Shown one piece after another: positions 3,252 through 19,598 of a stretch of 19,598 nucleotides of DNA (position 1 is the first letter of the stretch; every line of letters begins with the position of its first letter). The notes under the pieces are model-generated. The model was not told the DNA's origin. It saw nothing but the letters and a program-made list of their open reading frames with translations, and did no database searches. Position numbers and translations under genes: made by a program. Origin of the DNA: a virus (taxonomy: Duplodnaviria; Heunggongvirae; Uroviricota; Caudoviricetes); IMG/VR virus record IMGVR_UViG_2526164634_000022. The stretch is one strand, 5' to 3'.

Positions 3252-3455
3252 ATGGCTAATTACAATTCATTAATTCGTCTCTCTGAAGTTCAAAGGCGAA
3301 CTGGTTATAGCAAAGCATGGATTTATCGTCTTATTAGTCAGGGGAGGTTCCCTAAACAGGTAAAAATTGGAAGTCGGGCAATTGCTTTTGTTGAGTCTGA
3401 AATAGATGAATGGATTGAGAAGTGTATATTAGAATCTAGAGACGAGGTGGCCTGA
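3252..3455 (+). CDS. alpA: AlpA-family transcriptional regulator / excisionase-like HTH protein
   Basis: 67-aa ORF; the motif LIRLSEVQRRTGYSKAWIYRLISQGRFPKQVKIGSRAIAFVESEIDEWI matches the AlpA/phage-Xis MerR-like HTH pattern; typical position after a P4-type int. Confidence 0.85.
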   Translation: MANYNSLIRLSEVQRRTGYSKAWIYRLISQGRFPKQVKIGSRAIAFVESEIDEWIEKCILESRDEVA

Positions 3456-3886: not shown

Positions 3887-3898
3887 CGGAGACTGAAA

Positions 3899-4732
3899 AT
3901 GAACATCGAAAAAAGCAGATTAATTTCTGAGGCTGCCCCTCATCTAAACGCCTCTCTGGGCACAATTAACGGTAATGAATTTGCCGCAATTGTCCCGGTT
4001 ATTCCTGGTCATATCGGTGGGCGTGAAACCAATATTGTTAGCGCAAAAGCGTTACACAAAGCGTTGGACGTGGGAAAAGACTTCTCTACATGGATCACTG
4101 ATCGCATCTCTGAATATGACTTCACCATTGGGCACGATTACTCAGTCCATAAAACTATTTCCCCAAATTTGGGGAAAATCCCGAATGGCGCGGCTTACAG
4201 CAAGATTAAGCAGTCTGGAAGACCCGGCAAAGACTATCTGTTAAGTGTCGGAATGGCGAAAGAACTGGCAATGATCGAACGCAATGATCAGGGGCGCGCT
4301 ATCCGTCGTTATTTCATCCAGTGCGAGGAAGAATTACAGCGTAGCGTGCCTGAAATCGCCGCCCGCTATCGTCGCCAGCTAAAAGCCCGTATCAGTGCCG
4401 CAAACAACTTTAAGCCAATGTGCGATGCGCTGAATATGGCCCGTGCCGAGATGGGGAAAACGACGCAGCAACACCACTACACAAACGAGAGCAATATGAT
4501 TTCTCGTATCGTTCTTGGTGGGCTAACTGCTAAGCAGTGGGCGCGGATAAATGGCTATTCTGGCGAACCTCGCGACCATATGAACGCAGAACAGCTTGAG
4601 CACCTCTCATATCTCGAAAGCACCAATATCACGTTAATTGATATGGGCATGGAATATGAGCAGCGCAAAGGAGAACTCACCCGCCTGTCGCAACGCTGGC
4701 TCGCTAAGCGTCTGGAGGCGGTCCATGTTTAA
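3899..4732 (+). CDS. AntA/AntB-type phage antirepressor-like protein
   Basis: 277-aa ORF with GGAG 7 nt upstream. N-terminal region (SAKALHKALDVGKDFSTWITDRISEYDFTIGHDY ... LSVGMAKELAMIERNDQGRAIRRYFIQCEE) resembles the AntA antirepressor domain; C-terminal half unassigned. Confidence 0.7.
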   Translation: MNIEKSRLISEAAPHLNASLGTINGNEFAAIVPVIPGHIGGRETNIVSAKALHKALDVGKDFSTWITDRISEYDFTIGHDYSVHKTISPNLGKIPNGAAYSKIKQSGRPGKDYLLSVGMAKELAMIERNDQGRAIRRYFIQCEEELQRSVPEIAARYRRQLKARISAANNFKPMCDALNMARAEMGKTTQQHHYTNESNMISRIVLGGLTAKQWARINGYSGEPRDHMNAEQLEHLSYLESTNITLIDMGMEYEQRKGELTRLSQRWLAKRLEAVHV

Positions 4733-4907
4733 GCCGACAGGAACACCACAACCTCAAAAACGCTACAAAGATGCCCACGGAGCACTCGTTACTGTCGAAA
4801 GCGTGTCTCACAACCGAGTGACGTTTTATCGCGACGGGTATCAATCGCCATGCGTACAACCGCTGGCACGTTTCATGAAGGAGTTCGCGGAGGTTAACAA
4901 ATGCTAA
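4725..4907 (+). CDS. small hypothetical protein (60 aa)
   Basis: ATG at 4725 with GGAGG 6 nt upstream, overlapping the end of the previous gene by 8 nt; in frame with the listed 4638-4907 ORF. Confidence 0.45.
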   Translation: MFKPTGTPQPQKRYKDAHGALVTVESVSHNRVTFYRDGYQSPCVQPLARFMKEFAEVNKC

Positions 4908-5968
4908 CCGCCCAGAAGAAGACATTTTCACTGGCTGGTATGTCGCCAAAATCCAGCAATATGACAGCAAAGTCAGGCATTAATACAGCAGATACAAGCA
5001 AAGTTTATCATTTGCTGGTGGTAGGAGCGGATGCCTTAACTATGTCAGAAATTACGGTCGATGGTGTTAGCGTTGAGAAGGTCAGCGGCTGCGCCAGAGA
5101 ATTTCTGGTCGTAGATGGCTTTCTCTGCTCGCGTAGTGACTCCACAAAAACCTTCGTCCACGCGCGTGACGTTAACGAAATGAGCGCGATGTACTGTGCT
5201 TCTGGTTCTTCCAATAGTGAGTTTTCGGAGTCCATAAAAAAGAGCTTGCCGTTATGCGGCAACACGGTTTATGGTTATAAGGCACCTCATAAAACGGGTG
5301 CCGGGATTGGCGTCCTGGTAAATCGAATGGCGACATATGACGCGCCGAGCGTCTTTTTTTATGTCGTAGGTCTGACTCACCCATTTTTTGGGCGTTGGTG
5401 TATAATCCAGCGCCTTTGTCAATCAATGGTGGCTCAGGCAGGGGCTTCTTCGGAAGCGCCGGTATCCATTCGAGCCGGTTACGCCAACCCTGTCTGGGCT
5501 ACCACCAGCGAAATTGGCGTTTCCGGTGGTAGCGTTACATGCTATCGAATGGAGGCTGCCACATGCTGGCTACTACCCCTACCCAAAAACCGCAATTTAT
5601 CTGGATTATCGCCGCAGTTCGCCGCGATTGCCCGACAATTACCGCCAAAATTCATCATATTGCTGCCGAGTCTGAACGCGATGCTCGCCGTTCTCTGGTG
5701 CGCGATCACGTCTGCTTTTTTGCTGGTCGTATCCGCATGGAGGTGGCACATGATTAAAACCTACGATGTGCATATGGATCCCCTCGAACGCACAAGCCAG
5801 ATCATCACACTGACAGAAGTGATTAACGACATTCTGGTGAGCAACTCTCCCTCACGAGACGAAAGACTGAAGGCGTTACTCGCGATATTGGATCTCGCCG
5901 TTCGTGACGTTCATTTCCTGCTGGAAGGTGGCGAAATGCCAGTAAAAACGGGGGAAACCAATGAATAA
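4901..5968 (+). CDS. long ORF of uncertain structure; 4901-5560 looks coding, the 3' part overlaps two better-supported small genes
   Basis: ATG at 4901 with GGAGG 9 nt upstream; the frame stays open for 355 codons, which is unlikely by chance; no recognisable family. True end unknown. Confidence 0.3.
5563..5757 (+). CDS. small protein, possibly Icd-like (P4-family host cell division inhibitor-like)
   Basis: ATG at 5563 with GGAGG 7 nt upstream; 64 aa ([57 protein letters not shown]...); the resemblance to Icd-like proteins is from memory, not a search. Confidence 0.45.
   Translation: MLATTPTQKPQFIWIIAAVRRDCPTITAKIHHIAAESERDARRSLVRDHVCFFAGRIRMEVAHD
5750..5968 (+). CDS. small hypothetical protein (72 aa)
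   Basis: ATG at 5750 with GGAGG 6 nt upstream; overlaps the previous stop (ATGATTAA); first gene of a chain of coupled small genes. Confidence 0.5.
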   Translation: MIKTYDVHMDPLERTSQIITLTEVINDILVSNSPSRDERLKALLAILDLAVRDVHFLLEGGEMPVKTGETNE

Positions 5969-6155
5969 CTCAATTAATACCCCTCGCCTTACGTCCGCAC
6001 TTCAATTAATCGAGCAAGCAGCGGCTGTCCTGGTTGCTGTCAGTCTTTCGGCTGAAGAAATGGACGCTACTGATGTCGTGGATGCGATTAAAGCGTGCTC
6101 ATCTTTGGTTAACGATGCCCGTGCAGAGCTGGTAATTCTTGGGGGTGAAAAATGA
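5961..6155 (+). CDS. small hypothetical protein (64 aa)
   Basis: ATGAATAA start/stop overlap with the upstream gene; G-rich RBS upstream. Confidence 0.5.
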   Translation: MNNSINTPRLTSALQLIEQAAAVLVAVSLSAEEMDATDVVDAIKACSSLVNDARAELVILGGEK

Positions 6156-6415
6156 ATATCAACTTAATTTATCGTCATCCGTGTGAGCTGGAAATTGAAT
6201 CATTGCTGAGCCGTGAAGAGCCATATCCAGACACATTCACTCTTGCAGATCGCACGACTGAACGGCTTACCAGAGCGCGCACAGGTCTGGTTCATGTGAT
6301 GAATGAGATTCTTCCATCGGTGGGAGGGGAACAGGCGACAGTAATCACTAGCTGGCTACAAAAAGTTACCTCTCTGATAGATATCAGTTTAATCGATGCG
6401 GAGAGTGCGAAATGA
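6152..6415 (+). CDS. small hypothetical protein (87 aa)
   Basis: ATGA start/stop overlap; GGGGGTGA RBS upstream. Confidence 0.55.
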   Translation: MNINLIYRHPCELEIESLLSREEPYPDTFTLADRTTERLTRARTGLVHVMNEILPSVGGEQATVITSWLQKVTSLIDISLIDAESAK

Positions 6416-6633
6416 CCAACATCCAGCTCATTGAAGCGCAATGTCGCATCGAACAGGTTCAGACTGTTTTAGGGTTCTGGCTTGAAGGGGCCAGCCCCAG
6501 CAACAGAGACAAGTTAATGATTGGCGCGGTTATGTCACTGCTCAATGGCGTACCAGAAGCTATTCAGGAAGCAGACGAATTGTTGGGCAAATATGAGTTA
6601 CAGAATCATTCAGGCGAGGCGAAACATGAATAA
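6412..6633 (+). CDS. small hypothetical protein (73 aa)
   Basis: ATGA start/stop overlap; GGAGAG RBS upstream. Confidence 0.55.
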   Translation: MTNIQLIEAQCRIEQVQTVLGFWLEGASPSNRDKLMIGAVMSLLNGVPEAIQEADELLGKYELQNHSGEAKHE

Positions 6634-7228
6634 TTTCTTAACTTTCCATGCAGAAGCAACGCCTGACGGCGTAAACATCATGCACCGCAGCAACGATGGC
6701 ATGACAGAACGCGTTGAGACCGTCTCATATATTGATGCCGTAAATCGTCTGGATGCCGGGGATTATGACGATAAACCAGATGAAGGCATGTCAATACATC
6801 TCGCTATAGCCGATGGCGGCAACCAGGGATATTTCGATTACACATCACAGCATAACGTCATTATGTGGAGATGGCTGATCGCAACAGTATTCATGCTGGA
6901 AATGAGAGAGGAAAACGGCACTGTCAGCATCATTGATGATACTGGCAATCCTTCCGAAGTGGCTGTTTATTCCAACGGCATCGTCGCCATGCCGCTGTAT
7001 CCAGTAGCAGAGCGCCTCGCTATGGCAAACAACATTGAGGGCGCGATGATAGAACGTTTTGGCATCGAGTCTGGCACAGAACGCGCCATCATTTTCTACA
7101 GAGCCATGATGGATGTGGAACAAGGAGCACTGACTCCATTTGGTCGTGAAACGCTTGCTGAACTTCACAACAGCTTTATAGCTGAACTGAATGAAAACGG
7201 CATGCCAGCGGAACCAGTGACGCACTGA
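6626..7228 (+). CDS. hypothetical protein (200 aa)
   Basis: Most likely start is ATG 6626 (ATGAATAA overlap with the upstream stop), not the longer 6521 ORF; part of the coupled operon. Confidence 0.6.
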   Translation: MNNFLTFHAEATPDGVNIMHRSNDGMTERVETVSYIDAVNRLDAGDYDDKPDEGMSIHLAIADGGNQGYFDYTSQHNVIMWRWLIATVFMLEMREENGTVSIIDDTGNPSEVAVYSNGIVAMPLYPVAERLAMANNIEGAMIERFGIESGTERAIIFYRAMMDVEQGALTPFGRETLAELHNSFIAELNENGMPAEPVTH

Positions 7229-7238
7229 GGATGGAGCC

Positions 7239-7580
7239 ATGATTACTAAAAATTTCCGACTGAATGCGCTGGCAAATAAGTATGCGTCGGCACTGTATAA
7301 CCACATTACCTCCACCAGCGGCGGGGACTATTTCATGGTTGATGCGGACGGCGAGGCCGTACGTGTGGAAATCGTCAATGGAGTAAAAGGCGTTCGCAGC
7401 CTGATCGATAGCTACACACTGGCAGCCATGAAAGTGTTCTACCCGCAGTGGGAAACCGTGGGGATCGAGCTTCTTGAGCGTTGCGTCACTAAGGACGGAT
7501 TGACTGACGTCGGGCGTGAGATATGGCAAAGCATGGTTAATGACATGGGCGCAACTGTAGCGGGAGGTTCTCATGCGTGA
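7239..7580 (+). CDS. hypothetical protein (113 aa)
   Basis: ATG with GAGGATGGAG upstream; 10 nt after the previous stop. Confidence 0.6.
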   Translation: MITKNFRLNALANKYASALYNHITSTSGGDYFMVDADGEAVRVEIVNGVKGVRSLIDSYTLAAMKVFYPQWETVGIELLERCVTKDGLTDVGREIWQSMVNDMGATVAGGSHA

Positions 7581-7944
7581 AAATGCAGAAATGGCGCTTA
7601 GCTCCGCAATCGGAGAGCAGGTGGCAAAGATTGCTGGTGCTGTGTGGATTCATAACCTTCATTCTACTGGTGAAGAGAAAATGGCAATTCAGACGCCAGA
7701 GGGACGCACCATTACTACATCTCTGAAGCCGTCAGATGTTTGTGATCTGATTTGCGCATTCATGTACCCAGCAATGAGGACTGTCCACGGCGATAAGTGG
7801 AAACTTGCGACAACCGCTGAATTTGATATGTGGCTAAACAATGATGGCATGCTGACTGATTACGGAATAACCAAGTGGCAGATGCTGGTTAGCCATATCG
7901 CAAACGCTATAGACCACGTGGGGTACGGTGATGCGAAACATTGA
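7573..7944 (+). CDS. hypothetical protein (123 aa)
   Basis: ATG with GGGAGG RBS; overlaps neighbours at both ends. Confidence 0.6.
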   Translation: MRENAEMALSSAIGEQVAKIAGAVWIHNLHSTGEEKMAIQTPEGRTITTSLKPSDVCDLICAFMYPAMRTVHGDKWKLATTAEFDMWLNNDGMLTDYGITKWQMLVSHIANAIDHVGYGDAKH

Positions 7945-10687
7945 TCTTATCCGTCAGGTTATCAGTGCGTCTGAAAACAACTGGCCTCATGTGCTGGGCT
8001 GCCTGAACATAAATGTCCCTGACTCTCCGCGCCGTCATGCTCCCTGCCCTGCATGTGGGGGCAAAGATCGATTCCGGTTCGATGACAACGGGCGCGGTAG
8101 CTTCATCTGTAATCAGTGCGGCGCTGGTGATGGGCTGGATTTAATTAAACGCGTAAATAACTGCGACACAACAGAGGCGGCGCTTCTTGCCGCTGATGTT
8201 CTGGGTATTGATTACCGGACAACGGAAACACCAGAAGCCACCAGCCAGAAACGGGAACAACTGGAAACCGAGCGCCAGCGACGCGAACAGGAGCGCCTGA
8301 AAAGGGCAGAGAAGGACGAACAACAAAGACGGGATACGTTTTCCCGTCAGTTTGATGACATGCGCAGAAAGGCTGTAAACGGCAAATCTGATTATCTGGT
8401 TGCGAAAGGGGTAGGTGATTTTACATTCCCCGTGTTGCCCGATGGATCTCTGTTGCTGGCGCTGGTGGATAAATCCGGCGCAGTCACAGCAGCACAGACT
8501 ATTACCTCACATGGTGAAAAAAGACTCCTGACAGGTTCAGCAAAGCGGGGGGCATATCACGCCTTAAACGCACCAGAAACAACACAGAGCATCTTAATCG
8601 CAGAAGGGCTGGCAACGGCATTATCTGCCCATTTAATTCGTCCAGAGGCGCTGACAGTGGCGGCAATTGATGCCGGGAACCTGTTATATGTGGCCCAGGT
8701 ACTGCGGGATAAATTTCCTTCAGCACAAATCATCATTGCTGCGGATAACGACCACAGCGAAGGAAGACAAAACACGGGGAGAATAGCAGCAGAAAAAGCA
8801 GCTTTATCTGTTTCTGGATGGGTGGCATTACCCCCGACAGATCACAAAGCAGACTGGAATGATTACCACCAAAAACACGGCATTAAATGCGCCACAGAAG
8901 CGTTCAATAAGTCAATGTACCAACCACAGGGTAATGGCGTGAAACAGGAGCCACAGACCATTGAGGGAAGCGATTTTAAGGTTATGGATACCGACCCACT
9001 GAAACCAAGAATAGAAAGCCGCGAGGATGGTATTTATTGGGTATCTCCGAGAGCTGACAACCAGAGTGGAGAAATCATCAATAACGAAAGCTGGTTATGT
9101 TCTCCGTTAAGCGTTATCGGTACTGGCAGAGACGATAAAGACCAGTATCTCATTCTTCGCTGGCTGTCGTTTGGTTCTGAAACGCCGACAACCGCTGCCA
9201 TTCCACTGGCTGATATTGGTGAACGTGAAGGATGGCGCACACTTAAAGCTGGTGGGGTAAATGTCACGACCAAAAGCAGCCTCAGAGCAATACTGGCAGA
9301 CTGGCTACAACGCAGTGGCTCTCGTGAATTGTGGCGTGTTGCTCATGCCACTGGCTGGCAATGCGGAGCGTACATCATGCCTGATGGGGAAATCATCGGA
9401 ACACCTGAAAATCCTGTGCTGTTCAGCGGGAGAAGCTCAGCCGCAGCCGGATATACCGTCTCAGGGAGCGCGAAAAGCTGGCGTGATAACGTGGCGCGTC
9501 TGGCCTTTGGTAACTATTCAATGATGACCGGGATAGGCGCAGCACTGGCAGCGCCATTGATTGGGCTGGTGGGCGCTGACGGGTTCGGCATTCATTTCTA
9601 TGAGCAGTCGAGCGCAGGTAAGACCACCACGGCAAACGTGGCGAGCAGCTTATACGGCAACCCTGATTTACTGCGGCTGACGTGGTACGGAACCGCGCTG
9701 GGGCTGGCAAATGAGGCCGCCGCCCACAATGACGGACTAATGCCGCTTGATGAAGTTGGTCAGGGCGCTGATCCTGTCAGCGTTTCACAGTCTGCCTATG
9801 CGTTATTTAACGGTGTAGGGAAACTGCAAGGCGCTAAAGATGGTGGAAACCGGGATCTAAAACGCTGGCGTACAGTGGCAATCAGCACCGGAGAAATGGA
9901 TTTAGAAACATTTATCGCTACTTCCGGGCGAAAAACCAAAGCCGGGCAACTGGTGCGACTGCTGAATATTCCGTTGAGTAAAGCAGTACGCTTTCACGAT
10001 TACCAGAACGGAAAACAGCACGCAGACGCACTGAAAGACGCTTACCAGCATCACCACGGCGCGTCCGGGCGTGAGTGGATTAAATGGCTGGCAGACCACC
10101 AGCAACAGGCTATTAAAACCGTTCGTGACTGCGAAAGCAGATGGAGAAGCCTGATCCCATCCGATTATGGTGAGCAGGTTCACCGTGTAGCCGCGCGATT
10201 TGCCATTCTGGAGGCCGCATTGTTGTTAGGCGAGGTTGTAACAGGCTGGGATGCTCAGACATGCCGTGATGCGATACAGCACAGCTATAACGCATGGTTG
10301 CGCGAGTTCGGCACAGGTAACAAAGAGCATCAGCAGATTATTGAACAAACGGAGGCATTTCTTAATGCCTATGGGCTTAGCCGTTTTGCACCATTTCCAT
10401 ACAGCCCGGCAGATTTGCCCATCAAAGATTTAGCCGGATACCGTCAGCGTGGAGAACATGACGAAAGCCCAATGATTTTCTACACATTCCCGGCCACATT
10501 TGAAAAGGAGATCGCATGTGGTTTCAACGCAAAACAGTTTGCTGAAGTGTTGAAAAAAGCCGGGATGCTAACCCCACCAAACAGCGGTCGTGGATACCAA
10601 AGAAAATCACCACGTATTCAGGGACGACAAATAAACGTTTATGTACTCAATTACCAGCCAGGAGATTATAACTCATCTGAAGAATGA
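7928..10687 (+). CDS. P4-alpha-like primase / replication protein (zinc-ribbon + Toprim primase + P-loop/DUF927-like C-terminal domain)
   Basis: 919-aa ORF (GTG 7928 or ATG 7931). N-terminal Cys4 zinc ribbon (CPACGG...CNQCG); Toprim-like motifs ILIAEGLATALSA (compare the P4 alpha EGYATA motif) and IIIAADNDHSEGRQNTG; P-loop-like YEQSSAGKTT; followed directly by an iteron origin. Confidence 0.9.
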   Translation: MMRNIDLIRQVISASENNWPHVLGCLNINVPDSPRRHAPCPACGGKDRFRFDDNGRGSFICNQCGAGDGLDLIKRVNNCDTTEAALLAADVLGIDYRTTETPEATSQKREQLETERQRREQERLKRAEKDEQQRRDTFSRQFDDMRRKAVNGKSDYLVAKGVGDFTFPVLPDGSLLLALVDKSGAVTAAQTITSHGEKRLLTGSAKRGAYHALNAPETTQSILIAEGLATALSAHLIRPEALTVAAIDAGNLLYVAQVLRDKFPSAQIIIAADNDHSEGRQNTGRIAAEKAALSVSGWVALPPTDHKADWNDYHQKHGIKCATEAFNKSMYQPQGNGVKQEPQTIEGSDFKVMDTDPLKPRIESREDGIYWVSPRADNQSGEIINNESWLCSPLSVIGTGRDDKDQYLILRWLSFGSETPTTAAIPLADIGEREGWRTLKAGGVNVTTKSSLRAILADWLQRSGSRELWRVAHATGWQCGAYIMPDGEIIGTPENPVLFSGRSSAAAGYTVSGSAKSWRDNVARLAFGNYSMMTGIGAALAAPLIGLVGADGFGIHFYEQSSAGKTTTANVASSLYGNPDLLRLTWYGTALGLANEAAAHNDGLMPLDEVGQGADPVSVSQSAYALFNGVGKLQGAKDGGNRDLKRWRTVAISTGEMDLETFIATSGRKTKAGQLVRLLNIPLSKAVRFHDYQNGKQHADALKDAYQHHHGASGREWIKWLADHQQQAIKTVRDCESRWRSLIPSDYGEQVHRVAARFAILEAALLLGEVVTGWDAQTCRDAIQHSYNAWLREFGTGNKEHQQIIEQTEAFLNAYGLSRFAPFPYSPADLPIKDLAGYRQRGEHDESPMIFYTFPATFEKEIACGFNAKQFAEVLKKAGMLTPPNSGRGYQRKSPRIQGRQINVYVLNYQPGDYNSSEE

Positions 10688-10712
10688 GCTTCTTCATGTG
10701 CGTAGAAAAGGT

Positions 10713-10832
10713 GTTGGTTCAGTTGGTTCAGTTGGTTCAGTTGGTTCAATTTGTAAAGAGTATTGTTTTATAAGGATTTTATTCTTTTTATTGAACCAAC
10801 ACTGAACCAACAACACGGTATTTTGAACCAAC
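10713..10832. repeat. Iteron-type replication origin: GTTGGTTCA x4 tandem (10713-10748), AT-rich spacer (10749-10791), then inverted TGAACCAAC x3 (10792-10800, 10803-10811, 10824-10832)
   Basis: Exact 9-bp units read from the sequence; iterons flanking an AT-rich segment, 26 bp downstream of the primase stop. Confidence 0.8.
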
Positions 10833-10882
10833 ACAATGTGACTGAATTGATGCGCACAACACCTGGCTGGCATCAGAGAGTG

Positions 10883-10958
10883 TTTTACGAGACTTTCGTA
10901 AAATCCTGTGTACAAGGGCGTGACGTTTTTGAAAGTGAGCACTACGAAATTTTCGTAG
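10883..10958. promoter_or_regulatory. Two related palindromes: TTTTACG-N7-CGTAAAA (10883-10903) and CTACGAAA-T-TTTCGTAG (10942-10958); candidate operator sites
   Basis: Inverted repeats seen in the sequence; both share the TACGA/TCGTA half-site; located between the origin and a terminator. Confidence 0.3.
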
Positions 10959-11152
10959 TTCAGAAAACAGCCTCTGAGAAGTTGTTATGCCTGTTCAGCA
11001 AACCATCCGCATAGCTGATCGCGAATCAAATTACCAATGGAGCCAGAAGCAAGGGCAGAACTGAAAAGCGCCTGCCGTGAAGAGTAATGCGACACCATAA
11101 ATATAGTTTTTAGAGTCCATAAAAAACCTGTCAAAACCTGACACACAGAACG

Positions 11153-11186
11153 ATGCCACCAGCTACTGAGCGGTGGCATTTTTTTG
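11153..11186 (+). terminator. Rho-independent terminator
   Basis: Stem ATGCCACC (11153-11160) / GGTGGCAT (11172-11179) with an 11-nt loop, followed by a T-run starting 11180. Confidence 0.6.
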
Positions 11187-11280
11187 TGCTATTTGTTTCA
11201 TATTTTGCAATTACGATGATGAATATTGCGATTTGTGAAACTATAATAACTGTTGTTTTATACAGTTCTAAGGGGGCGTT

Positions 11281-11442
11281 ATGGCTATTTCAGTAAAGCC
11301 GGTATTGATAAGTGAGAAGCAAATGGAAGCGATAAAGAAAATTCAGGAAGAGCAGCGTAAAAAATCAGGAATTGGAGTAGCGCCAACTCTGCATGAAATT
11401 GCACGAGGGTTAATAGATAAGGCGCTGGCAGGCTGTATGTGA
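11281..11442 (+). CDS. small hypothetical protein (53 aa; MAISVKPVLISEKQMEAIKKIQEEQRKKSGIGVAPTLHEIARGLIDKALAGCM)
   Basis: Not in the ORF track (under 60 aa); ATG 11281 with AAGGGGG about 6 nt upstream; preceded by a TATAAT hexamer at about 11243; first gene after the terminator. Confidence 0.5.
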   Translation: MAISVKPVLISEKQMEAIKKIQEEQRKKSGIGVAPTLHEIARGLIDKALAGCM

Positions 11443-11458
11443 AAATGGATGGCATCGC

Positions 11459-11920
11459 ATGGAACTAAAATTTATTGATAACCCTGTGCGATTACAGGCC
11501 TTTCTTAACGAGCCAGGCAATACCGAAAATATTGTTGAGCCGGGGCACACGTACTACATCAAGCCTGATGCGGTATATCTCGGCATCTACGAAGGATTAG
11601 TGCTGGCTGGCGTTCATGAAGTGCGTAACTTCTGGCATAGCGTTGTTGAATGCCATGCGGTGTACGACCCCGGATTCCGTGGTGAATATGCACTGCAAGG
11701 ACATCGATTATTCTGCAAATGGCTTCTCGAAAACTCACCATTCCTTAACAGCATCACTATGGTTCCTGACACCACGAAATACGGACGGGCAATTATCCGT
11801 TTGCTTGGCGCTACCCGTGTTGGTCACCTTGATGATGCTTATATCAGATGTGGTAAACCCGTCGGCGTAACGCTTTATCAGTTAACTCGGCAACAATATA
11901 AGGAATTCAGCGAATGTTAA
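11459..11920 (+). CDS. hypothetical protein (153 aa)
   Basis: ORF with the next gene's ATG overlapping its end; no family recognised. Confidence 0.6.
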   Translation: MELKFIDNPVRLQAFLNEPGNTENIVEPGHTYYIKPDAVYLGIYEGLVLAGVHEVRNFWHSVVECHAVYDPGFRGEYALQGHRLFCKWLLENSPFLNSITMVPDTTKYGRAIIRLLGATRVGHLDDAYIRCGKPVGVTLYQLTRQQYKEFSEC

Positions 11921-12591
11921 TTACCCATATAGCTCATAAACATCTCAATCGTGCCGTATACGAAAAAGGCGGTGATGGTGGTGCCTCTAAAGCTCAGGCG
12001 AAGGCCCAGCAGCAGGCAATTGATTTGCAGCGCGAGCAGTGGAATACGGTGATGAATAATCTCAAGCCGTATGCAGAAGTCGGATTGCCTGCTTTACAAC
12101 AACTACAAGGACTGATGACTCTGGAAGGGCAGAATAAAGCCGCGAATGATTTCTTTGGTTCTGGTTTATATAAAACACAGGCAGATCAGGCCCGTTATCA
12201 GAACCTTGTCTCAGCAGAAGCTACCGGGGGGCTTGGCTCAACAGCTACCAGTAACCAGTTATCTTCCATTGCGCCCATGCTTTATAACAATTGGCTTAGT
12301 GGGCAAATGCAAAATTATGGAAACCTGCTAAATGTCGGGATGAATGCGGCATCAGGGCAGGCAACGGCAGGGCAAAACTACGCCAATAATACCGGACAAC
12401 TCTTGCAGGGGCTTGGCGCTATTCGTGCAGGTCAGGCGCAGCAGCCATCCAGTCTTGCGCGTGGTATTGGTGGGGCAGCATCAGGCGCTTTAGCGGGTGC
12501 GCAACTTGGTTCCGTTGTTCCTGGAATAGGAACTGCGGCCGGCGCTATTGGTGGTGGGCTTATTGGTCTTGTTGGGGGGCTTGGATTCTAA
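11914..12591 (+). CDS. Q/A/G-rich protein, possibly a P22-family ejection (DNA-transfer) protein gp7 homolog
   Basis: 225 aa; N-terminal YEKGGDGGASKAQAKAQQQ, Q/N/A-rich middle, Gly-rich hydrophobic C-terminus (GIGTAAGAIGGGLIGLVGGLGF); size and first position in a three-gene coupled operon match P22 gp7 (229 aa). Homology is recalled, not searched. Confidence 0.5.
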   Translation: MLITHIAHKHLNRAVYEKGGDGGASKAQAKAQQQAIDLQREQWNTVMNNLKPYAEVGLPALQQLQGLMTLEGQNKAANDFFGSGLYKTQADQARYQNLVSAEATGGLGSTATSNQLSSIAPMLYNNWLSGQMQNYGNLLNVGMNAASGQATAGQNYANNTGQLLQGLGAIRAGQAQQPSSLARGIGGAASGALAGAQLGSVVPGIGTAAGAIGGGLIGLVGGLGF

Positions 12592-14012
12592 TGGCGACAT
12601 GGCAACTTGGCGGGCTGCCTAGCATGGCACCGCAAAATGATAATGCTCCTCGTTCTTCCGTTCCTCAGCCTGTGCAGTATCAGCAGCAGCCAAACGTAGG
12701 TTTAATGGCGCTACAGGGGCTAAGAGGCGTTGCTGAGATTAATCAGCAGGCACGTCAACAACAGCGTAAAGCAGAGTTTCAGAAAGCATATGCCGGGGCT
12801 TTTGAGTCTGGAGACAGAAACAAAATGCGCAGTCTTATTTCTGAGTATCCAGAAGAATTTGAAAGCGTTCAGAAAGGGATGGGCTTTATTGATGACGACC
12901 AGAGAAATTCTATTGGTCATCTTGCGACTAGTGCTCAAATCGCATCTTCGCTCGGAACTGGGGCATTTGGAAAATTCATAGCAGATAACGAAGATGAAAT
13001 GCGTCGCTTGGGAATTTCTCCTGAGTCTGTTGCCGAAATGCATGTTAATGATCCACAGGGGTTCCAGCGGCTTGCTGGTAGTATGGCACTGTTTTCTCTC
13101 GGTCATGAGAAGTATTTCGATATCAAAGATCAAATGGAAGGTCGGGATATTGAGCGTGGCAAGTTGGCAGAAACAATCCGCAGCAATCAGGCTGGCGAAG
13201 CACTTCAGGCGAGAGGGCAGGATATTAGCCGAGCAAATGCGTTAACGTCAGCATATGCACCAACAGCAGCAATGCAGAATTACAATCAGTACGCTCAAAT
13301 GTTAAAGGCGGATCCAGAGGGGGCGGCGGCATTTGCGGCAGCGGCTGGAATTAATACAAACGCCAAAAAATTAATGAGTGTTAGAGAAAACGATGATGGC
13401 ACTGTCACAAAATACTACACAGACGGAAGTGAAGAGCAGGGAAAACTAAACCAGCCAATATCTGGAGATGGGTTTCGTCCAATAGCTTTGCCAACAGCCC
13501 AAAAGATCATGGAAAAGTCGCCAGAAGGGGCTAAAAAAGCTGCTGGATTTGCATACAGGGTTAGGGATGCTCTTGATTCAATAGATACACTGAAAGACCA
13601 GCTTAGCCCACAGCGAGTGGCGATCATTAATAATGCTTTGGGTAATGGGACGCTGGCTAACTTAACGCTCAGCCCAACAGAACAGCAATACGTTGTTAAT
13701 GCTAATGACGCAATAATGGCAATACTCCGTCAGGAAACAGGGGCAGCCATCGTACCTGCTGAAATGTCAAAATATTATCAAATGTATTTCCCTCAGCCTG
13801 GCGACTCCACAAAAACCATTGATACCAAGCGCCGGAAGATGGAAAACCAGTTCAATTCGCTGAAAGCTGCTTCTGGTCGAGCTTATGATGCTTTGCGGGT
13901 TATTTCAGCAGTTGACAGAGGAACTTCTTCTTCGTCGCAGACATTGCCGCAATCTGAGCAGGTATCACAGCCAGCAGCCAGCAGTAACTTTTCTTCACTA
14001 TGGGGTGATTAA
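12591..14012 (+). CDS. Q/A-rich protein, possibly a P22-family ejection protein gp20 homolog
   Basis: 473 aa (P22 gp20 is 471 aa); TAATG start/stop overlaps at both ends; low-complexity Q/A-rich composition. Confidence 0.5.
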   Translation: MATWQLGGLPSMAPQNDNAPRSSVPQPVQYQQQPNVGLMALQGLRGVAEINQQARQQQRKAEFQKAYAGAFESGDRNKMRSLISEYPEEFESVQKGMGFIDDDQRNSIGHLATSAQIASSLGTGAFGKFIADNEDEMRRLGISPESVAEMHVNDPQGFQRLAGSMALFSLGHEKYFDIKDQMEGRDIERGKLAETIRSNQAGEALQARGQDISRANALTSAYAPTAAMQNYNQYAQMLKADPEGAAAFAAAAGINTNAKKLMSVRENDDGTVTKYYTDGSEEQGKLNQPISGDGFRPIALPTAQKIMEKSPEGAKKAAGFAYRVRDALDSIDTLKDQLSPQRVAIINNALGNGTLANLTLSPTEQQYVVNANDAIMAILRQETGAAIVPAEMSKYYQMYFPQPGDSTKTIDTKRRKMENQFNSLKAASGRAYDALRVISAVDRGTSSSSQTLPQSEQVSQPAASSNFSSLWGD

Positions 14013-16116
14013 TGGCTAAAGCATGGAAAGATGTTATCGCCTCTCCACAGTATCAGGCGTTAGCACCAGAACAAAAAGCGCAGGCTCAGGAGCAATACTT
14101 CAATGAAGTCGTGGCCCCGCAAGCCGGAGAAAGTGTAGAGCAGGCTAAGCAGGCTTTTTATGCTGCCTATCCACTACCATCAACGAATGAAATAGACCGA
14201 TCCCAATCAGCAACTCAAAATATTCAACATACATCATCTGATAATTCTCTTGCGTCAGGGTATGCAAAGTTAGCTACTCAGCAAAGAGAGGGGCTTGAGC
14301 GTTCAGCAGAACAGGGAGCCAGTCTTGGGGCTGCGATGCGCGATGCTATAACAGGCGAAAGCCGAATGACTCCAGAGATGGAGAGACTGCAAAATGTCGA
14401 CCTTGCCCCAGAGTTAACCTCACTCAGCATGGATGCTCTAAAAGCTCGATGGTCTCAACTTTTCGGCTCTGACGCATCTCAGGAAAAGATTCTTCAGAGC
14501 ATGGGAGCGAAATTAAGGCAGGATGAGAAGGGTAACACTATCGTTTCCCTGCCATCCGGTGATTATGCTCTGAACAAGCCGGGTTTATCGCCGCAAGACG
14601 TGGCATCGTTTCTGGCTAATGCGCAGGCGTTTACACCAGCGGGCAGGGCTGGAACGGTGCTTGGTGCCATAGGAAAATCAGCAGCTACAGATTTAGCACT
14701 ACAGGGAGCCACTAGCCTTGCTGGTGGAGAAGATATTGATCCGTTACAAACGGTAATTTCTGCTGGCATTGGTGGTATTGGTAAGGGGCTGGAAAATACA
14801 GCGAGTGCGGTTTCGAGGGCTGTTCGTGGTGATATGTCGCCTGAAGCAAAGGCTGCTGTCGACTTTGCATCGGAAAGAAATCTGCCGTTAATGACCAGTG
14901 ACATGCTAAAAGATAAAACCTTTATGCAGAGTCAGGCTCAGACATTAGGCGAAAGAGTTCCTTTTTTGGAACCGGTAAGAATCGGCTGAATCAACAACAA
15001 GCACGAGAAAATTTAGTCAGAACATTTAGCGATGGTCTGGGTGGCATTTCTGATAAACAGCTTTATGAATCTGCGACTAAAGGGCAACAAAAATTCATTG
15101 AGGCAGCGGGAAAGCGATATAACCGCATAATTGACGCTATGGGGGATACCCCTGTCGATCTCTCAAACACGGTAAAAGCTATCGACAATCAGATTGCCGT
15201 GTTAAGCCGCCCGGGCAAATCTCAGGATAGAGCCGCGGTAAAAGTCTTGCAGCAATTTAAAGACGATATCACCAGCGGACCAAATGACCTGCGTCTGGCG
15301 AGGGAAAACAGAACCGATCTTCGAAATCGATTTATGGCGTCATCTGACACTGTTGATAAAGATACGCTCCAGAAAGCCAGCGATATTATCTACAAGGCAT
15401 ATACGGCGGATATGAAAAAAGCCGTAGCCAAAAATCTTGGAGCAGACGAAGCCATTAATATGGCAAGGGTTGATCGCTCATGGTCTAAATTCAATGACAT
15501 GATGGGAAGAACGCGCGTTCAAAAGGCAATAGCCAGCGGCAAGGCCACGCCTGAGGATGTAACAAAACTCGTTTTTAGCCAAAGCCCATCAGAACGTTCT
15601 CAGCTTTACAGGCTTCTGGATGACAATGGTAGGCAAAACGCACGAGCAGCCATAGTTCAGAATGCTGTAGATAAGGCGACTGATCCGTCTGGAAATATCA
15701 GTGTTGAGAAGTTTATTAATGCGTTACACCGGAACAGGAAGCAATCAGCAACTTTCTTTAAAGGCGTACATGGAAAGGAACTGGACGGCGTTATTAAATA
15801 CCTCAACGATACAAGACACGCGGCAAAAGCGAACGTTCAAAACTTAAATGGTCAGCAGCTTTATGGATTGTTAGTTGGTGGTGGCATCATAAACGCAGCA
15901 GTATTAGCGGGGATGCTAAAAACGGCTGCGTTTGTTGTTCCTGCTGCTGGTGCCGTAGGCGGAGCAGCGAAGGCATACGAAAGCCCTGTTATACGAAATG
16001 CCTTGTTACGTCTGGCAAATACGCCAAAAGGTAGCACAGCATATGACAGAGCGATCAGTACGGTCACACAATCGCTCACCAGAGTCGCACAGGCATCACA
16101 AAAAGAAGCTCAATAA
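14012..16116 (+). pseudogene. gp16-like ejection protein gene split by a frameshift (or homopolymer sequencing error): ORF halves 14012-14989 and 15139-16116
   Basis: The downstream frame is open with no ATG from 14917 to 15138, overlapping the end of the upstream ORF; a T6 run at 14962-14967 lies in the overlap; the 150-bp gap contrasts with the 1-nt overlaps elsewhere in the operon. Confidence 0.55.
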
Positions 16117-16135
16117 CTGGTTAGCCATGGATGGC

Positions 16136-16750
16136 TTAGATATCTCTGCTGTCTCCATTAGGAAATAAAAGATAATATGGATTTGCCTTTCTTGCTCTCC
16201 TTGCTTCACCTGGATACCTGTTAGTCAGTAGCTTGCATAATGAGCAGAGAACAACACTCAAGAAAATTCCGAATGAGAAGATCAATATCTCACCAAAAAT
16301 CAATGGCGATATTAAATTTTCAGGATTTAATGATAAGTCAATGTTAAAAACATATTGAGCAATACCAGTAAGTATCAATAATATAATCCCTATGGAATAC
16401 ATTGCTGTTTCCCAAACATCAGACAGTCTATTTTTGAATTGTTCGCTGGAGTAGTAGTTTGTTATAAAGTCAGAAAAATCACTCTCATATGCATCATCTT
16501 TAGGTGATGTTAGAAATCCTCTGTCTCTCCATACCTTCTCCCAATTAGTCGATTCTTTTTTTAAGGAAAAATAAATATGTATTGCCAAAAGGATAGCCAA
16601 AATTGGTGTTAGCTCTAAAAAATAGAATGTTATGGAATAAATAATACTGCCATGTTCAAACTCATCTGGGACTATCATGTATGCACAAAAATAAATTGAA
16701 AAGTACACCATGCAGATAGTTAGCAATTCTTTAGTATCTTTTCTGCTCAC
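16136..16750 (-). CDS. AT-rich integral membrane protein (about 4 TM helices); candidate superinfection-exclusion (SieA-like) or other membrane effector
   Basis: 204-aa ORF, GTG start at 16750 with AAGGGGG 5 nt upstream; hydrophobic segments (LLTICMVYFSIYFCAYMIV, ILAILLAIHIYF, IGIILLILTGIAQYVF, IFGEILIFSFGIFLSVVLCSL); about 33% GC versus about 50% in flanks; convergent with the gp16-like gene, as sieA is with gene 16 in P22. Confidence 0.7.
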   Translation of the reverse strand: MSRKDTKELLTICMVYFSIYFCAYMIVPDEFEHGSIIYSITFYFLELTPILAILLAIHIYFSLKKESTNWEKVWRDRGFLTSPKDDAYESDFSDFITNYYSSEQFKNRLSDVWETAMYSIGIILLILTGIAQYVFNIDLSLNPENLISPLIFGEILIFSFGIFLSVVLCSLCKLLTNRYPGEARRARKANPYYLLFPNGDSRDI

Positions 16751-16863
16751 ACCAACCCCCTTTAGCGTTGTTTAGAATGGCAATCATCATATATCCAAGA
16801 CATGGCATTTGGTACATAGCTTGGGTCGGGATTTCAAATCCGCCCCCGTTGATGGGGTCGTTA

Positions 16864-17260
16864 CAGTACGCGCATATCCGCTTTATGTGAAACAGGAAGA
16901 TTTTTCTGATATCACTGCCACAGCAAAACACCAATTTCGAGACAAGTACGCGCGCGAGGGGTATCAGTTGCAAAAAGTTTTGCAACTGCGTCCGACCAGT
17001 ACGCACACAATGGAGGGGAGTACCATAAAACTGTTCTCTACATAAGACAGAGTGGTGGTGATGTGTTGATTATCGGCGTATATGCGCACAGGACGCGCTA
17101 TGACGATGTTTTATGCGGGTACACCAATCACATGTATCTGGTGTGATAAATCGCGTTACATGACATCTCATGTTGTGCTGGTGGTTATCACGACGTTCTG
17201 AATCTGGCCTTTGCCTGATATTTTGCGACAAGTACGCGCGCGTAGCATAGAAATTATCGG
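16864..17260. repeat. Repeat-rich noncoding region: exact 16-bp direct repeat GACAAGTACGCGCGCG (16941-16956, 17227-17242), AGTACGC(G/A)C motif x4, and palindrome CAGTTGCAAAA-AG-TTTTGCAACTG (16965-16988)
   Basis: Repeats read from the sequence; no convincing ORF with an RBS; lies between the membrane-protein gene and the Abi gene. Confidence 0.45.
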
Positions 17261-17393
17261 ATGGCGTATGCTGCTGGCAATATGAAGACCGATAGTATTA
17301 ACCGAAAAGCGATTAAGGAGTGCCAACTTTTCAGTAGAGAAACTAGCCAGCATAGGAAAATGTAGAAATTACCCAATTAATAGGTAAAAGTTA

Positions 17394-17523
17394 TTGACAC
17401 AGCCTGTAGTGGATAACGATATGAATAAAAACCACATATAGTGGTTTTTCGTGAGTGATGATAGTATCTATGTTAGTTTCCTAAGTAACTGTGCATTGAC
17501 ATGTGGATAACTTCGGATAGAGT
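17394..17523 (+). promoter_or_regulatory. Two candidate sigma70 promoters for the Abi gene, each with a DnaA-box-like site next to the -35 (TTGACA 17394-17399 + AGTGGATAA 17408-17416; TTGACA 17496-17501 + TGTGGATAA 17502-17510, -10 TAGAGT 17518-17523)
   Basis: Two perfect TTGACA hexamers; TGTGGATAA is the reverse complement of the DnaA box TTATCCACA. -10 elements are weak. Confidence 0.3.
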
Positions 17524-17619
17524 TACAGGCAACCGAGCCCGATCCTCTGTTTCTCCGCCGCCGATTTCAGGCATGTGAGTTTCACGGTCGGGCCTTTTAT
17601 TATCTTTTGTTTCGCCACT

Positions 17620-18597
17620 ATGATTGCCGCAAAGCCTCATAAGGACTATCACGAATTGCTAGGATTGCTACTTGAACGTGGCATGATTATCAATGATCGA
17701 AATCGTGCGATACGTAAGCTGTCGCAGGTTGGATATTATCGATTGTCAGGTTTTTGGTACCCATCAAGAATTATTGCGACAACAGATAAAGGTCTTTCGT
17801 ACAGAACAGACCGATTTCTTGCTGGTACCAGTTTCGAGAAGACGTACGATCTATATCTTTTTGACAAAAAACTGCGTCTTTTGATGATTGATGCTATCGA
17901 AAGAATAGAGATTCATGTTCGTTCAGTCATCGCGCATGAGGTTGGTCGCAATGATCCACTTGCCTACATGTCATCAAAATACATTAATCCAAAATTCTCA
18001 TCTGCCTTCGAGCATTGGGTGTATAAGCAAAAAGTAAAATTAGACGAAAGCAGAGATGACTGTATTGAATGGCATCGAAGCCAAGGCAAGGAGATTCCAT
18101 TTTGGGTGGCGGTGGAGACCTGGGATTTTGGTCAGATGTCTAAATATTATGCGATGCTTAATGGTCATATGCAGGGGAAAATTATACGTCGTTTTGGCAT
18201 TGATAATAAGCAGACATTTGCAAAATGGTTGAAGTGCCTTAATCTCATAAGGAATCGTTGCGCTCACCATTCCAGAATATGGAATAGAAAGCATCCCCGA
18301 GTTCCAGTACCGGATAATGAATACTTTGACGGACTTAATCTCCATCCAGAGAGTTGCGAGAGGATTTTTAGCGCGATCTGTATTATCTGGTACTTAGTTA
18401 AACGACTTGGTCCGGGATCAACATGGCTTCGGCAAATTGCAGACCTTATTGACTCTAAACCAAATGTTCCCGGATGTGGATATGATTCAATGGGTTTACC
18501 TGCTAAAGGATTCCCACGAGAGAGATTCTCTCAGGACTTAGGTTTTGTTATCGCCGACAACGACCCTGTAGCTGAAGGGCGGAAAGGGAGCGATTGA
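17620..18597 (+). CDS. Abi_2 family abortive-infection protein (AbiD/AbiF-like)
   Basis: Motifs YYRLSGFWYP, ERIEIHVRSVIAHEVG and NLIRNRCAHHSRIWN, characteristic of the AbiD/AbiF (Abi_2) family. Start set at the first in-frame ATG (17620); the track ORF extends to a GTG at 17575. About 40% GC. Confidence 0.8.
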   Translation: MIAAKPHKDYHELLGLLLERGMIINDRNRAIRKLSQVGYYRLSGFWYPSRIIATTDKGLSYRTDRFLAGTSFEKTYDLYLFDKKLRLLMIDAIERIEIHVRSVIAHEVGRNDPLAYMSSKYINPKFSSAFEHWVYKQKVKLDESRDDCIEWHRSQGKEIPFWVAVETWDFGQMSKYYAMLNGHMQGKIIRRFGIDNKQTFAKWLKCLNLIRNRCAHHSRIWNRKHPRVPVPDNEYFDGLNLHPESCERIFSAICIIWYLVKRLGPGSTWLRQIADLIDSKPNVPGCGYDSMGLPAKGFPRERFSQDLGFVIADNDPVAEGRKGSD

Positions 18598-18626
18598 GCG
18601 ATAAATATCATTTATACACTGATCAA

Positions 18627-19067
18627 TTACTGAAGCAGCGTATTGATTCTTTTAATATTGTTACCCTGACGCTTCCACGCGCTGTAAATGTCTTTATCCC
18701 ACGCTTTACCAGCTTTTGTTTGGTAGCCTGCTTCATTGAGTCGTTCCGCTATCACACGCCCATTATCAAATCCCTGTCGGATGGTATCGGCAATGATCTT
18801 TATAACTGCTGTTTCGTTATATGGCTTTGGTGGGATGTTCGGCTTTCCGGCAATAAGCGATGCTGCGGCTTTTTCCATGCGCTCCACCAGCCCAAGCATT
18901 CGTGAATCAATAGACTTTTCCGGCTGTCCCAGCTTCATGCGAATCGCATCAACAAGCCAGGAGGTTTTATCCCCTCCAGAAGCGAGAACAGACCGATTAA
19001 ACTCATCCTGCAATTCAGATGGGATGCGGAACGCGATCAGATTAGATTTGCTCATTGCAAAGACCAT
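18627..19067 (-). CDS. Arc/MetJ-type ribbon-helix-helix DNA-binding protein with a C-terminal recombinase-like DNA-binding segment
   Basis: 146 aa (start 19067 or 19055). N-terminus NLIAFRIPSELQDEFNRSVLASGGDKTSWLVDAIRMKL fits a beta-strand/helix/helix RHH fold; C-terminal GRVIAERLNEAGYQTKAGKAWDKDIYSAWKRQ resembles the recombinase domain of serine recombinases; palindrome GTATAACA-C-TGTTATAC (19090-19106) just upstream. Confidence 0.65.
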   Translation of the reverse strand: MVFAMSKSNLIAFRIPSELQDEFNRSVLASGGDKTSWLVDAIRMKLGQPEKSIDSRMLGLVERMEKAAASLIAGKPNIPPKPYNETAVIKIIADTIRQGFDNGRVIAERLNEAGYQTKAGKAWDKDIYSAWKRQGNNIKRINTLLQ

Positions 19068-19159
19068 ATCAGTGAGTAATATCCATACAGTATAACACTG
19101 TTATACGCTCAAATATCAGCCAGAAAATAACGAACCAATCACAAATCTATCGCTGTGTT

Positions 19160-19280
19160 GTTGGTTCAGAGCTGGGCTGTGTTGGTTCAAAATGAGTTGA
19201 TGTTGGTTCAATATTTTAGAAAAAACACAATAAAAACAACGCTCTTTACAAATTGAACCAACTGAACCAACTGAACCAAC
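19160..19280. repeat. Second iteron cluster, an inverted and diverged copy of the 10713-10832 origin: GTTGGTTCA at 19160, 19181, 19202 (21-bp phasing), AT-rich spacer, then TGAACCAAC x3 tandem (19254-19280)
   Basis: Same 9-bp unit as the first cluster; flanks also match (CTCTTTACAAATTGAACCAAC...ACCTTTT in cluster 2 equals the reverse complement of the cluster 1 flank; TGTGTTGGTTCAAAAT shared). Confidence 0.8.
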
Positions 19281-19316
19281 ACCTTTTTGCTTATCTATAT
19301 AATCTGAGAGGCAGAA

Positions 19317-19598
19317 ATGATAAAGGACAGGAAAGCTGAAGAGCTGGAGTCAAAAGGGCTATACCGGAGAGCTGCCGCACGATGGATGGAAGTCATGCTG
19401 TTATGCACCGAGGACGATGATCGGGAATGGATAAAGCGCCGCCGTGAAACGTGTCTGGAGAACGTGAAGCGCCCGCCCGTGAAGGTTGAGGACTTTGGCG
19501 ACCTGCATAAAGCTGTTACCGAAACGCAACACCGCATGGGGATAGCGCAACCGAACGGTAACGCCTTCCGGTTAAATGGCGGCAAGAGGCAAAGGTAG
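19317..19598 (+). CDS. PerC-family transcriptional activator-like protein
   Basis: 93-aa ORF ending with a stop at 19596-19598; N-terminus MIKDRKAEELESKGLYRRAAARWMEVM matches the PerC/Pch family signature; starts 37 bp after the iteron cluster. Confidence 0.75.
   Translation: MIKDRKAEELESKGLYRRAAARWMEVMLLCTEDDDREWIKRRRETCLENVKRPPVKVEDFGDLHKAVTETQHRMGIAQPNGNAFRLNGGKRQR

Follow-up and report, generated by a model that had tools for sequence, protein, structure and literature searches.

In phage-inducible chromosomal islands (PICIs) and Staphylococcus aureus pathogenicity islands (SaPIs), the Rep protein is a helicase that loads itself and uses a C-terminal winged-helix domain to read iterons that lie directly after its own gene and flank an AT-rich region (PMC6092414; PMC9371898). 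The published origins of this kind, such as that of EcCICFT073, form one compact unit immediately 3' of the initiator gene, in the order int, alpA, pri(-rep), ori (PMC6092414; PMC9371898); about 11 TGTCTACC iterons are found within 230 bp in the EcCICFT073 origin. Gram-negative PICIs (GN-PICIs) also carry the RNA pair isrK and C4 in a "Bro zone," a perC gene, and, downstream of pri, a late zone made up of late genes captured from phages (PMC10111431) as well as an accessory/defense region (PMC11364771). In phage P4, according to the GenBank annotation, crr lies directly 3' of the alpha gene and ori is 4.5 kb away. The P4 crr consists of two 120-bp direct repeats, and its ori has extra type-2 repeats. 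P4 replication needs crr, and the alpha protein loops ori to crr. In plasmid R6K (the alpha, beta, and gamma origins) and in P1 (incA), one Rep acts at several site clusters on a single replicon, which allows looping or handcuffing. Here we describe the 19,598-nucleotide virus record IMGVR_UViG_2526164634_000022 from IMG/VR (Caudoviricetes; the whole stretch is called the window below), in which two inverted iteron modules, M1 and M2, lie 8.4 kb apart. We consider it probable, if well short of certain, that both serve as binding sites for the Pri-Rep protein that the island itself encodes and belong to one Gram-negative PICI-type satellite integrated at thrW, and that the origin of this satellite is split. 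The searchable literature, the coverage of which is incomplete, gave no account of a PICI with a split or double origin.

The iteron 9-mer GTTGGTTCA is present as 13 exact copies in the window, all of them within M1 (10713-10832) or M2 (19160-19280), compared to a chance expectation of 0.08 copies on average and 2 at most in 200 dinucleotide-preserving shuffles of the window. M1, on the plus strand, begins 25 nt beyond the stop codon of Pri-Rep and consists of four forward iterons in tandem at 9-nt spacing (10713-10748), a 43-nt core (10749-10791), and three reverse iterons starting at 10792, 10803, and 10824 (spaced 11 and 21 nt). M2, on the minus strand, consists of three forward iterons starting at 19160, 19181, and 19202 (spaced 21 and 21 nt), a core that is likewise 43 nt long (19211-19253), and three reverse iterons in tandem (19254-19280), and all six of its iterons are undamaged in the window. 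The cores are 83.7% AT in M1 and 79.1% AT in M2, against a window average of 52.6%. When the two modules were aligned, M2 proved to be the reverse complement of M1, with a 48-nt arm that is 96% complementary and an identity of 78% across about 190 nt. The gap between the modules is 8,327 nt, and the start-to-start distance is 8,447 nt. An earlier note on this DNA, made from the sequence alone, had reported two inverted iteron clusters at these positions that share AT-rich cores and matching flanks and bracket a cargo segment. Its positions and description were correct, as were the inverted alignment, the AT-rich cores, and the placement of late and accessory genes between the two origin-type elements; the matching of the flanks held only in part, a modest likeness made up of the outer 7-nt sequence AAAAGGT and, toward the cargo, a weak CTGGCTG motif. 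The number of tandem iterons in M1 is strain dependent, with four in the window and in genome ET565 and three in MB49, PRO_A-1534, and Escherichia sp. MOD1-EC7003, and a fourth tandem copy is apparent in M2 of some genomes.

M1 fits the definition of a PICI origin, with opposed iterons around an AT-rich region directly after the Pri-Rep gene (PMC6092414). The Pri-Rep protein encoded just upstream (7928-10687, plus strand; 919 amino acids) comprises, by Pfam, a zinc ribbon, a TOPRIM primase, and a DUF927 helicase/initiator domain (E = 2.5e-47), followed by a C-terminal region that tracks the iteron type. Residues 1 to 360 align with the P4 alpha primase region at 33% identity (BLASTP, E = 9e-42). 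Beyond residue 360 or so, BLASTP gave no similarity to P4 alpha, and the alpha-type plan of primase, superfamily 3 helicase, and C-terminal iteron binding was not found. Instead, residues 404 to 814 match the SaPI "Pathogenicity island protein" 8tch_A (phmmer, E = 1.5e-11), and the profile of the Pri-Rep family also matches the SCCmec Cch helicase 5dgk_A. The initiator thus has the DUF927/MCM-like helicase of the SaPI type, homologous to both SaPI Rep and Cch. On its domain matches, Pri-Rep is a chimera in which a P4 alpha-like primase is joined to a SaPI Rep/Cch-like DUF927 helicase.

The C-terminal region of Pri-Rep was compared among relatives with different iterons. Among primases that are 70-81% identical, the 16 sequences with the GTTGGTTCA iteron are fully distinguished from the 5 with TGTTGTCTC by only 7 alignment columns, which correspond to residues 824, 892-897, and 911. 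Moreover, a Morganella primase associated with the GTTGGTTCA iteron is 55% identical to Pri-Rep overall and 75% identical in residues 841 to 900, a segment in which primases with other iterons are only 32-44% identical. This pattern would place a determinant of iteron specificity at the extreme C terminus of Pri-Rep, as in SaPI Reps.

In other respects as well, the element has the characteristics of a Gram-negative PICI. The genes follow the order int, alpA, (Bro zone), pri, run rightward in one direction, and belong to an element within the 10-to-20-kb size range. No lysis module or complete virion module was detected with Pfam and PHROGs; the phage late genes are limited to P22-type homologues of genes 14, 7, 20, and 16 and a SieA-like gene. 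The island is integrated at the tRNA-Thr gene thrW (1369-1444, plus strand; ARAGORN and Rfam), the 3' end of which forms the attL core (about 1428-1446, TCCTATTATCGGCACCATT), and it is found in at least 121 complete E. coli genomes. An integrase arm-type site, GGGGGTACTTATGGGGGTAT, is present near 1558-1577, just upstream of the integrase gene, and a second copy lies beside attR. The annotation of ET565, which is 99.9% identical to the window, extends the island about 1.7 kb past the window end to attR. Measured from M2, attR (TTCCTATTATCGCACCATT plus the integrase arm site) is about 2 kb away in ET565 and PRO_A-1534 and about 0.7 kb away in MB49, and its core is the attL core minus 1 nt in all three. 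In MB49, a degenerate thrW 3' end (TCCTATTATCG-CACCATT) and an arm-type site follow M2, and core genes (paoD onward) come next. Between M2 and attR are only perC and small tail genes, with no integrase and no primase. Since attR lies beyond M2 without a second integrase or primase, M1 and M2 belong to a single island rather than to two, and the finding that the earlier note had named as refuting its ori/crr reading, an independent second element with its own int and primase, is excluded. The att-to-att length of this island is 18.5-19.9 kb, and on an excised circle the shorter path between M1 and M2 would be 8.45 kb and the longer one 10.1-11.4 kb.

The earlier note had proposed that related islands be searched for one versus two clusters. 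Eighty loci with primase relatives were fetched from species-representative genomes with up to 10 kb of flank, and a repeated 9-mer was sought just after each gene. Both outcomes were encountered: two modules, either adjacent (about 24 loci) or split (five other genera), and, in some loci, only M1 within 10 kb. In the compact origins (primases 45-81% identical), both modules are within 300-390 bp after the stop codon, in the layout [tandem forward][AT-rich][spaced reverse] followed by [spaced iterons][spacer][tandem reverse]. One such example is a 12.5-kb E. coli island between yicC and dinD, with the order pri, M1-M2, ssb, perC, tail. Seven iteron sequences were distinguished by lineage (GTTGGTTCA, TGTTGTCTC, GTTGTACCA, AGTGTGTCA, GTTGTCTCA, ACGGGTTAC, and GTTATCCCA), and the same iteron is common to both modules in every related locus that has two. 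Two of the loci, L033 and L035 (Lelliottia and Scandinavium), have compact origins that mix GTTGTCTCA and GTTGGTTCA/TGAACCAAC in one module set in the 400 bp after the primase gene, a mixture that suggests either mosaic origins or relaxed specificity. The centers of the second modules are of two kinds, either GC rich (32-34% AT) or AT rich (78-81% AT), the latter being a true inverted copy of M1. M2 of the window is of the AT-rich kind, and all split islands keep a core of about 80% AT in M2 together with the full inverted-iteron layout.

The split layout, with the relative orientation of the modules unchanged, was also found in Lonsdalea, Chimaeribacter, Pantoea, Leclercia, and Cedecea, with 5.9-9.0 kb between the modules, and IMG/VR yielded at least 8 split contigs (7.4-10.4 kb between the modules) beside about 16 compact ones. 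On the primase tree, islands of the two layouts are intermixed. The relationship between the two forms is seen directly in two islands of Lonsdalea britannica, in which the primase and M1 are 93% identical and the M2 tandem iterons and right flank are 91-97% identical; the 119 bp that separate M1 from the M2 tandem iterons in one island correspond to a 5.86-kb cassette in the other. Within the modules, the iteron columns show 97.9% pairwise identity in M1 (13 genomes), versus 60.3% for the other module columns, and 95.8% in M2 (7 genomes, six genera), versus 61.3%; taken across genera, conservation is 96-98% for iteron columns and 55-61% for the remaining ones. From these comparisons, M2 appears to be a second complete, inverted unit under selection. 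The origin of this family would then be modular, usually contiguous and, in the present island and recurrently among its relatives, divided by the late/accessory zone. Because the modules adjoin as one compact origin in most relatives, the island reads as having a split PICI-type origin and not a homologue of P4 ori/crr.

We propose that the island excises to form a circle of about 19.9 kb, on which hexamers of Pri-Rep would recognize the iterons through their extreme C-terminal region, melt an AT-rich core, and load themselves. M1, which adjoins the Pri-Rep gene, would be the primary origin. M2, 8.45 kb away in one direction around the circle and about 11.4 kb in the opposite one, would either fire alone or pair with M1 through Rep-Rep contacts. 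Rep bound to the tandem iterons of M2, which abut a TA-rich box before perC, may in addition affect perC transcription. The late/accessory zone, with its P22-type ejection genes, SieA-like gene, Abi_2 gene, and orf146, would have come to lie between the two modules.

The anatomy of the modules, their placement in one island, their adjacency in relatives, the covariation of iterons with the Rep C terminus, and the selective conservation of the iterons are observed; binding, firing, pairing, and a promoter effect are inferred. Several points weigh against this proposal. An AlphaFold2 model of Pri-Rep residues 700 to 919 (from 32 sequences) had a mean pLDDT (predicted local distance difference test) score of 52, too poor for a fold search or to support a winged-helix iteron reader. 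A scan of 18900-19598 for consensus sigma-70 promoters and terminators found none, which does not favor a promoter at M2. The second module is GC rich at its center in the most frequent compact type; a "second origin unit" is therefore not a family-wide feature. Only M1 was found within 10 kb in loci L016, L019, L027, and L028, so that M2 may be dispensable for replication, although in these relatives it may also be further away. Finally, all split islands found carry the GTTGGTTCA iteron, and covariation of the two modules is shown for compact origins alone; a search of IMG/VR with the TGTTGTCTC-type pattern for split origins with another iteron returned one compact origin and five chance matches.

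The earlier note had likened the two clusters to the ori and crr regions of phage P4. Taken as a functional claim, this would mean that M1, as a crr-like site, and M2 are both required in cis, that Pri-Rep loops out the 8.4 kb of cargo, and that initiation occurs at only one of the two. We regard such an obligate pair as unlikely. The geometry is indeed that of P4, since both elements have two regions kilobases apart with the same iteron in both orientations, one of them directly 3' of the primase-helicase gene. The N-terminal primase domain is homologous to that of alpha, and C4 and isrK RNAs of the P4 type are present in the island. The variable distance between the modules (0 or 5.9-10.4 kb), with their orientation kept, also fits an element that acts at a distance. 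The likeness ends, however, at the level of the modules and of the initiator. By the standard applied to PICI and SaPI origins, M1 and M2 are each a complete unit, and they are mirror-image single units, unlike the direct repeats of crr and the type-2 repeats of the P4 ori. The helicase/DNA-binding part of Pri-Rep is of the DUF927/SaPI-Rep kind, with no detectable alpha similarity past residue 360 or so, and the modules are contiguous in most relatives of this island and in some only M1 lies within 10 kb. No sid, delta, or psu gene was among the Pfam and PHROGs matches or the RefSeq annotations of the island. The comparison with P4 is useful as a geometric analogy but does not appear to reflect homology of the origins.

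It is similarly doubtful that M2 is mainly a regulatory Rep site, serving either as an operator at the divergent orf146 and perC genes or as a handcuffing array that limits M1, in the manner of P1 incA or the distant sites of R6K. Its location is suggestive, in that M2 takes up nearly all of the 250-nt intergenic region between orf146 (18627-19067, minus strand) and perC (19317-19598, plus strand), a gene for a perC-family regulator (Pfam PerC, E = 2e-30) that is the first gene outside M2. A TA-rich box, TATATAAT (19296-19303, plus strand; read directly from the sequence), lies on the outer side of the M2 tandem iterons, 15 nt from the last of them. The same distance from the outermost tandem iteron is kept in most relatives, across iteron types and whatever gene follows, and no such box is found beside M1. 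This box may be a promoter. The tandem iterons and outer flank of M2 form a constant anchor while the inner part is exchanged, and the GC-rich center of the second module in the commonest compact type makes a melting site unlikely there. Against a mainly regulatory role, all split islands retain in M2 the core of about 80% AT and the full origin layout of inverted iterons. No consensus sigma-70 promoter was detected in the region, and the TATAAT box in the window is only 14 nt from the perC ATG, an awkward position for a normal leader. Negative control of copy number would also seem to answer no obvious need of a satellite that replicates in a burst. The systems used for comparison differ as well. 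The initiators of R6K and P1 belong to an unrelated family (the winged-helix dimers pi and RepA, as opposed to a helicase-initiator), both units have full origin anatomy here, and no partition or copy-control genes were seen.

A more elaborate version of the split origin, which we offer as speculative and rather improbable, would have M1 and M2 acting as a long-range pair. Pri-Rep would bridge the modules, in the way reported for P4 ori and crr, loop out the late zone, and couple initiation to expression of perC and of the late zone. The modules would double as portable homology arms for swapping between satellites the late/defense cassettes captured from helper phages, the origin thereby forming the frame of an accessory hotspot. 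The role as homology arms is suggested because the modules are the most conserved noncoding sequences among islands of the same Rep specificity.

Three further explanations have little left to recommend them. Very unlikely is the possibility that M2 has no function and is the relic of a recombination event during cargo acquisition that left an inverted second copy of the origin. Rearrangements have evidently been frequent, with split and compact forms interleaved on the primase tree, and M2 is apparently missing from some islands. Yet the six M2 iterons of the window are all intact, conservation of 95.8% for iteron columns against 61% for the intervening bases is unexpected for a decaying sequence, and a second module has been kept across seven iteron specificities. 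Still harder to sustain is the suggestion, also made in the earlier note, that the inverted modules are crossover sites for inversion of the cargo as a switch. Inverted arms of 48 nt with 96% identity are long enough for occasional RecA-dependent inversion. However, when all complete E. coli genomes were searched with a simulated inverted junction (the pri 3' end, module, and orf146 in plus orientation), 552 genomes matched its halves, and in none of the 552 was the junction covered to 80% or more. The orientation of the cargo is constant across genera, orf146, where detected, being on the minus strand just inside M2 in split islands of four other genera, and no invertase or serine recombinase was detected with Pfam or PHROGs in or beside the cargo. 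Finally, the chance that M2 is the origin of a second, related island integrated in tandem, the junction that the earlier note had raised, is practically nil: element arrays at thrW do occur (a prophage before the island and remnants after attR in ET565) and one IMG/VR contig has a 97% identical int about 1.9 kb after perC, but attR was located beyond M2, leaving M2 within the island, in each case examined, including MB49, where core genes directly follow.

In the preferred reading of a single island with a split origin, the sequence between M1 and M2 is the variable late/accessory zone already recognized in GN-PICIs. In the window, its left part consists of homologues of the P22 DNA ejection/transfer genes 14, 7, 20, and 16 (11459-16116, plus strand; Pfam DUF2824, P22_gp7, and Inj_translocase; PHROGs DNA transfer protein). 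The gene 16 homologue (14012-16116) is divided into two 325-residue open reading frames (ORFs) in different frames, whereas it is an intact 2106-nt coding sequence in ET565, MB49, and PRO_A-1534; the split reflects either a frameshift mutation or a sequencing error. These genes are followed by a 204-residue SieA-like ORF, a candidate superinfection exclusion gene (16136-16750, minus strand; phrog_7745, a weak match with E = 4e-4), by the gene for an Abi_2 abortive-infection defense protein (17575-18597, plus strand; Pfam Abi_2, E = 2e-52; PHROGs abortive infection resistance protein), and by orf146. Genes 14, 7, 20, and 16 followed by SieA on the minus strand represent the order of P22-like phages. 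The right-hand cargo, from the SieA-like ORF through Abi_2 to orf146, is exchanged in some contigs of the E. coli island.

The predicted 146-residue product of orf146 has no Pfam match, but tblastn across the loci showed it to be 63-67% identical in many related islands, and in most split islands the gene is the immediate inner neighbor of M2. Identity with RgdR was considered and rejected, RgdR being only 99 residues long. A palindrome, GTATAACAnTGTTATAC (19090-19106), lies between the orf146 start and M2 and is present as well upstream of the Morganella orf146 homologue (L031, 15338-15354), without nearby iterons; it is probably an operator of orf146 or of a neighboring regulator.

The other split islands have different cargo, namely, a tape-measure protein in Leclercia and Chimaeribacter, an SLT-domain protein and a P4 Beta-like protein in Cedecea, and SSB and ProQ/FinO in Leclercia. 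Because relatives hold tape-measure or SLT-domain proteins at the position of the P22-type genes, the islands seem to bring their own DNA delivery proteins, matched to the type of helper. The helper of the island described here is presumably P22-like, a view that is drawn from the cargo only. We considered, and rejected, the possibility that a sequenced phage was the recent source of the cargo. At the megablast level, matches to P22-like phages cover just 3-6% of its 8.6 kb, the cargo genes having diverged. No phage record among sequenced phages carries the M1/M2 modules.

The window as a whole reads proA, thrW, integrase, alpA, antA, an ORF annotated as "ash," small ORFs, Pri-Rep, M1, cargo, M2, and perC. 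The tyrosine integrase (1610-2824, plus strand) has the Pfam domains Phage_integrase, Arm-DNA-bind_3 (an arm-binding domain), and Phage_int_M. An isrK-like RNA (5282-5359; 67 bits) and a C4 antisense RNA (5422-5509; 79.5 bits), both on the plus strand (5282-5509) and above the Rfam gathering score, lie inside the 355-residue "ash family" ORF (4901-5968) and constitute a P4-type immunity RNA region.

Several short elements were noted in the noncoding sequence around the modules. The motif CTGGCTGG (10864-10871, plus strand; read directly from the sequence) is located about 30 nt from M1 on its inner side. In several relatives of differing iteron type, a CTGGCTGG(CA) motif is likewise found about 30 nt past the last spaced M1 iteron (e.g., L006, 12975-12982; L031, 12949-12956), and in several compact origins the CTGGCTGG motif is placed between both modules. 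Short repeats (GCGTGACGTT containing and AGTTTTCGGAGTCCATAAAAAA like) are common to 4810-4827, 5131-5241, 10900-10969, and 11105-11126, that is, to the region just upstream of isrK/C4 and to the 620-nt noncoding stretch from M1 to the first late gene; these repeats may represent a shared regulatory element. A shared leader of 5100-5520 and 10860-11290 was not upheld, since global alignment was uninformative and only the short repeats were left. A structured RNA in M1 was also discounted; a permissive Rfam scan of 10650-11500 gave only subthreshold matches to plant and animal microRNAs, which we ascribe to the palindromic shape of M1 and regard as artifacts.

Variation was also observed at the right end of the island and in its surroundings. 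Most E. coli matches to the window end within perC, at 19397-19400, and the perC allele of MB49 is only 52% identical. Positions 19397-19400 mark a recombination breakpoint in perC, beyond which the island tails differ. The thrW site hosts arrays of elements: in ET565 the island is separated from thrW by a tailed prophage that carries genes for gtr-type glucosylation (1-14800 of the fetched locus), and the remnants beyond attR are those of another island. The additional int noted above, in IMG/VR contig 2617270975_000009, possibly belongs to a tandem copy.

For satellite annotation and the design of minimal replicons, PICI and SaPI origins have been treated as one compact unit beside the initiator gene. 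The family described here suggests instead a modular origin, in which two Rep-binding units are either contiguous or kilobases apart and in which, in a recurrent subset spanning at least six genera, the variable late/defense zone lies exactly between them. If both units are active, replication would start either at two origins in inverted orientation or at a pair joined by looping, as in P4 ori/crr. Two active units, if true, would link the replication strategies of PICIs and P4, matching an initiator that itself combines a P4-type primase with a SaPI-type Rep. The split origin also offers a concrete explanation for the exchange of late and defense cassettes downstream of pri, and the engineering of these islands or the mapping of their accessory hotspots should count the distal module as part of the replicon.

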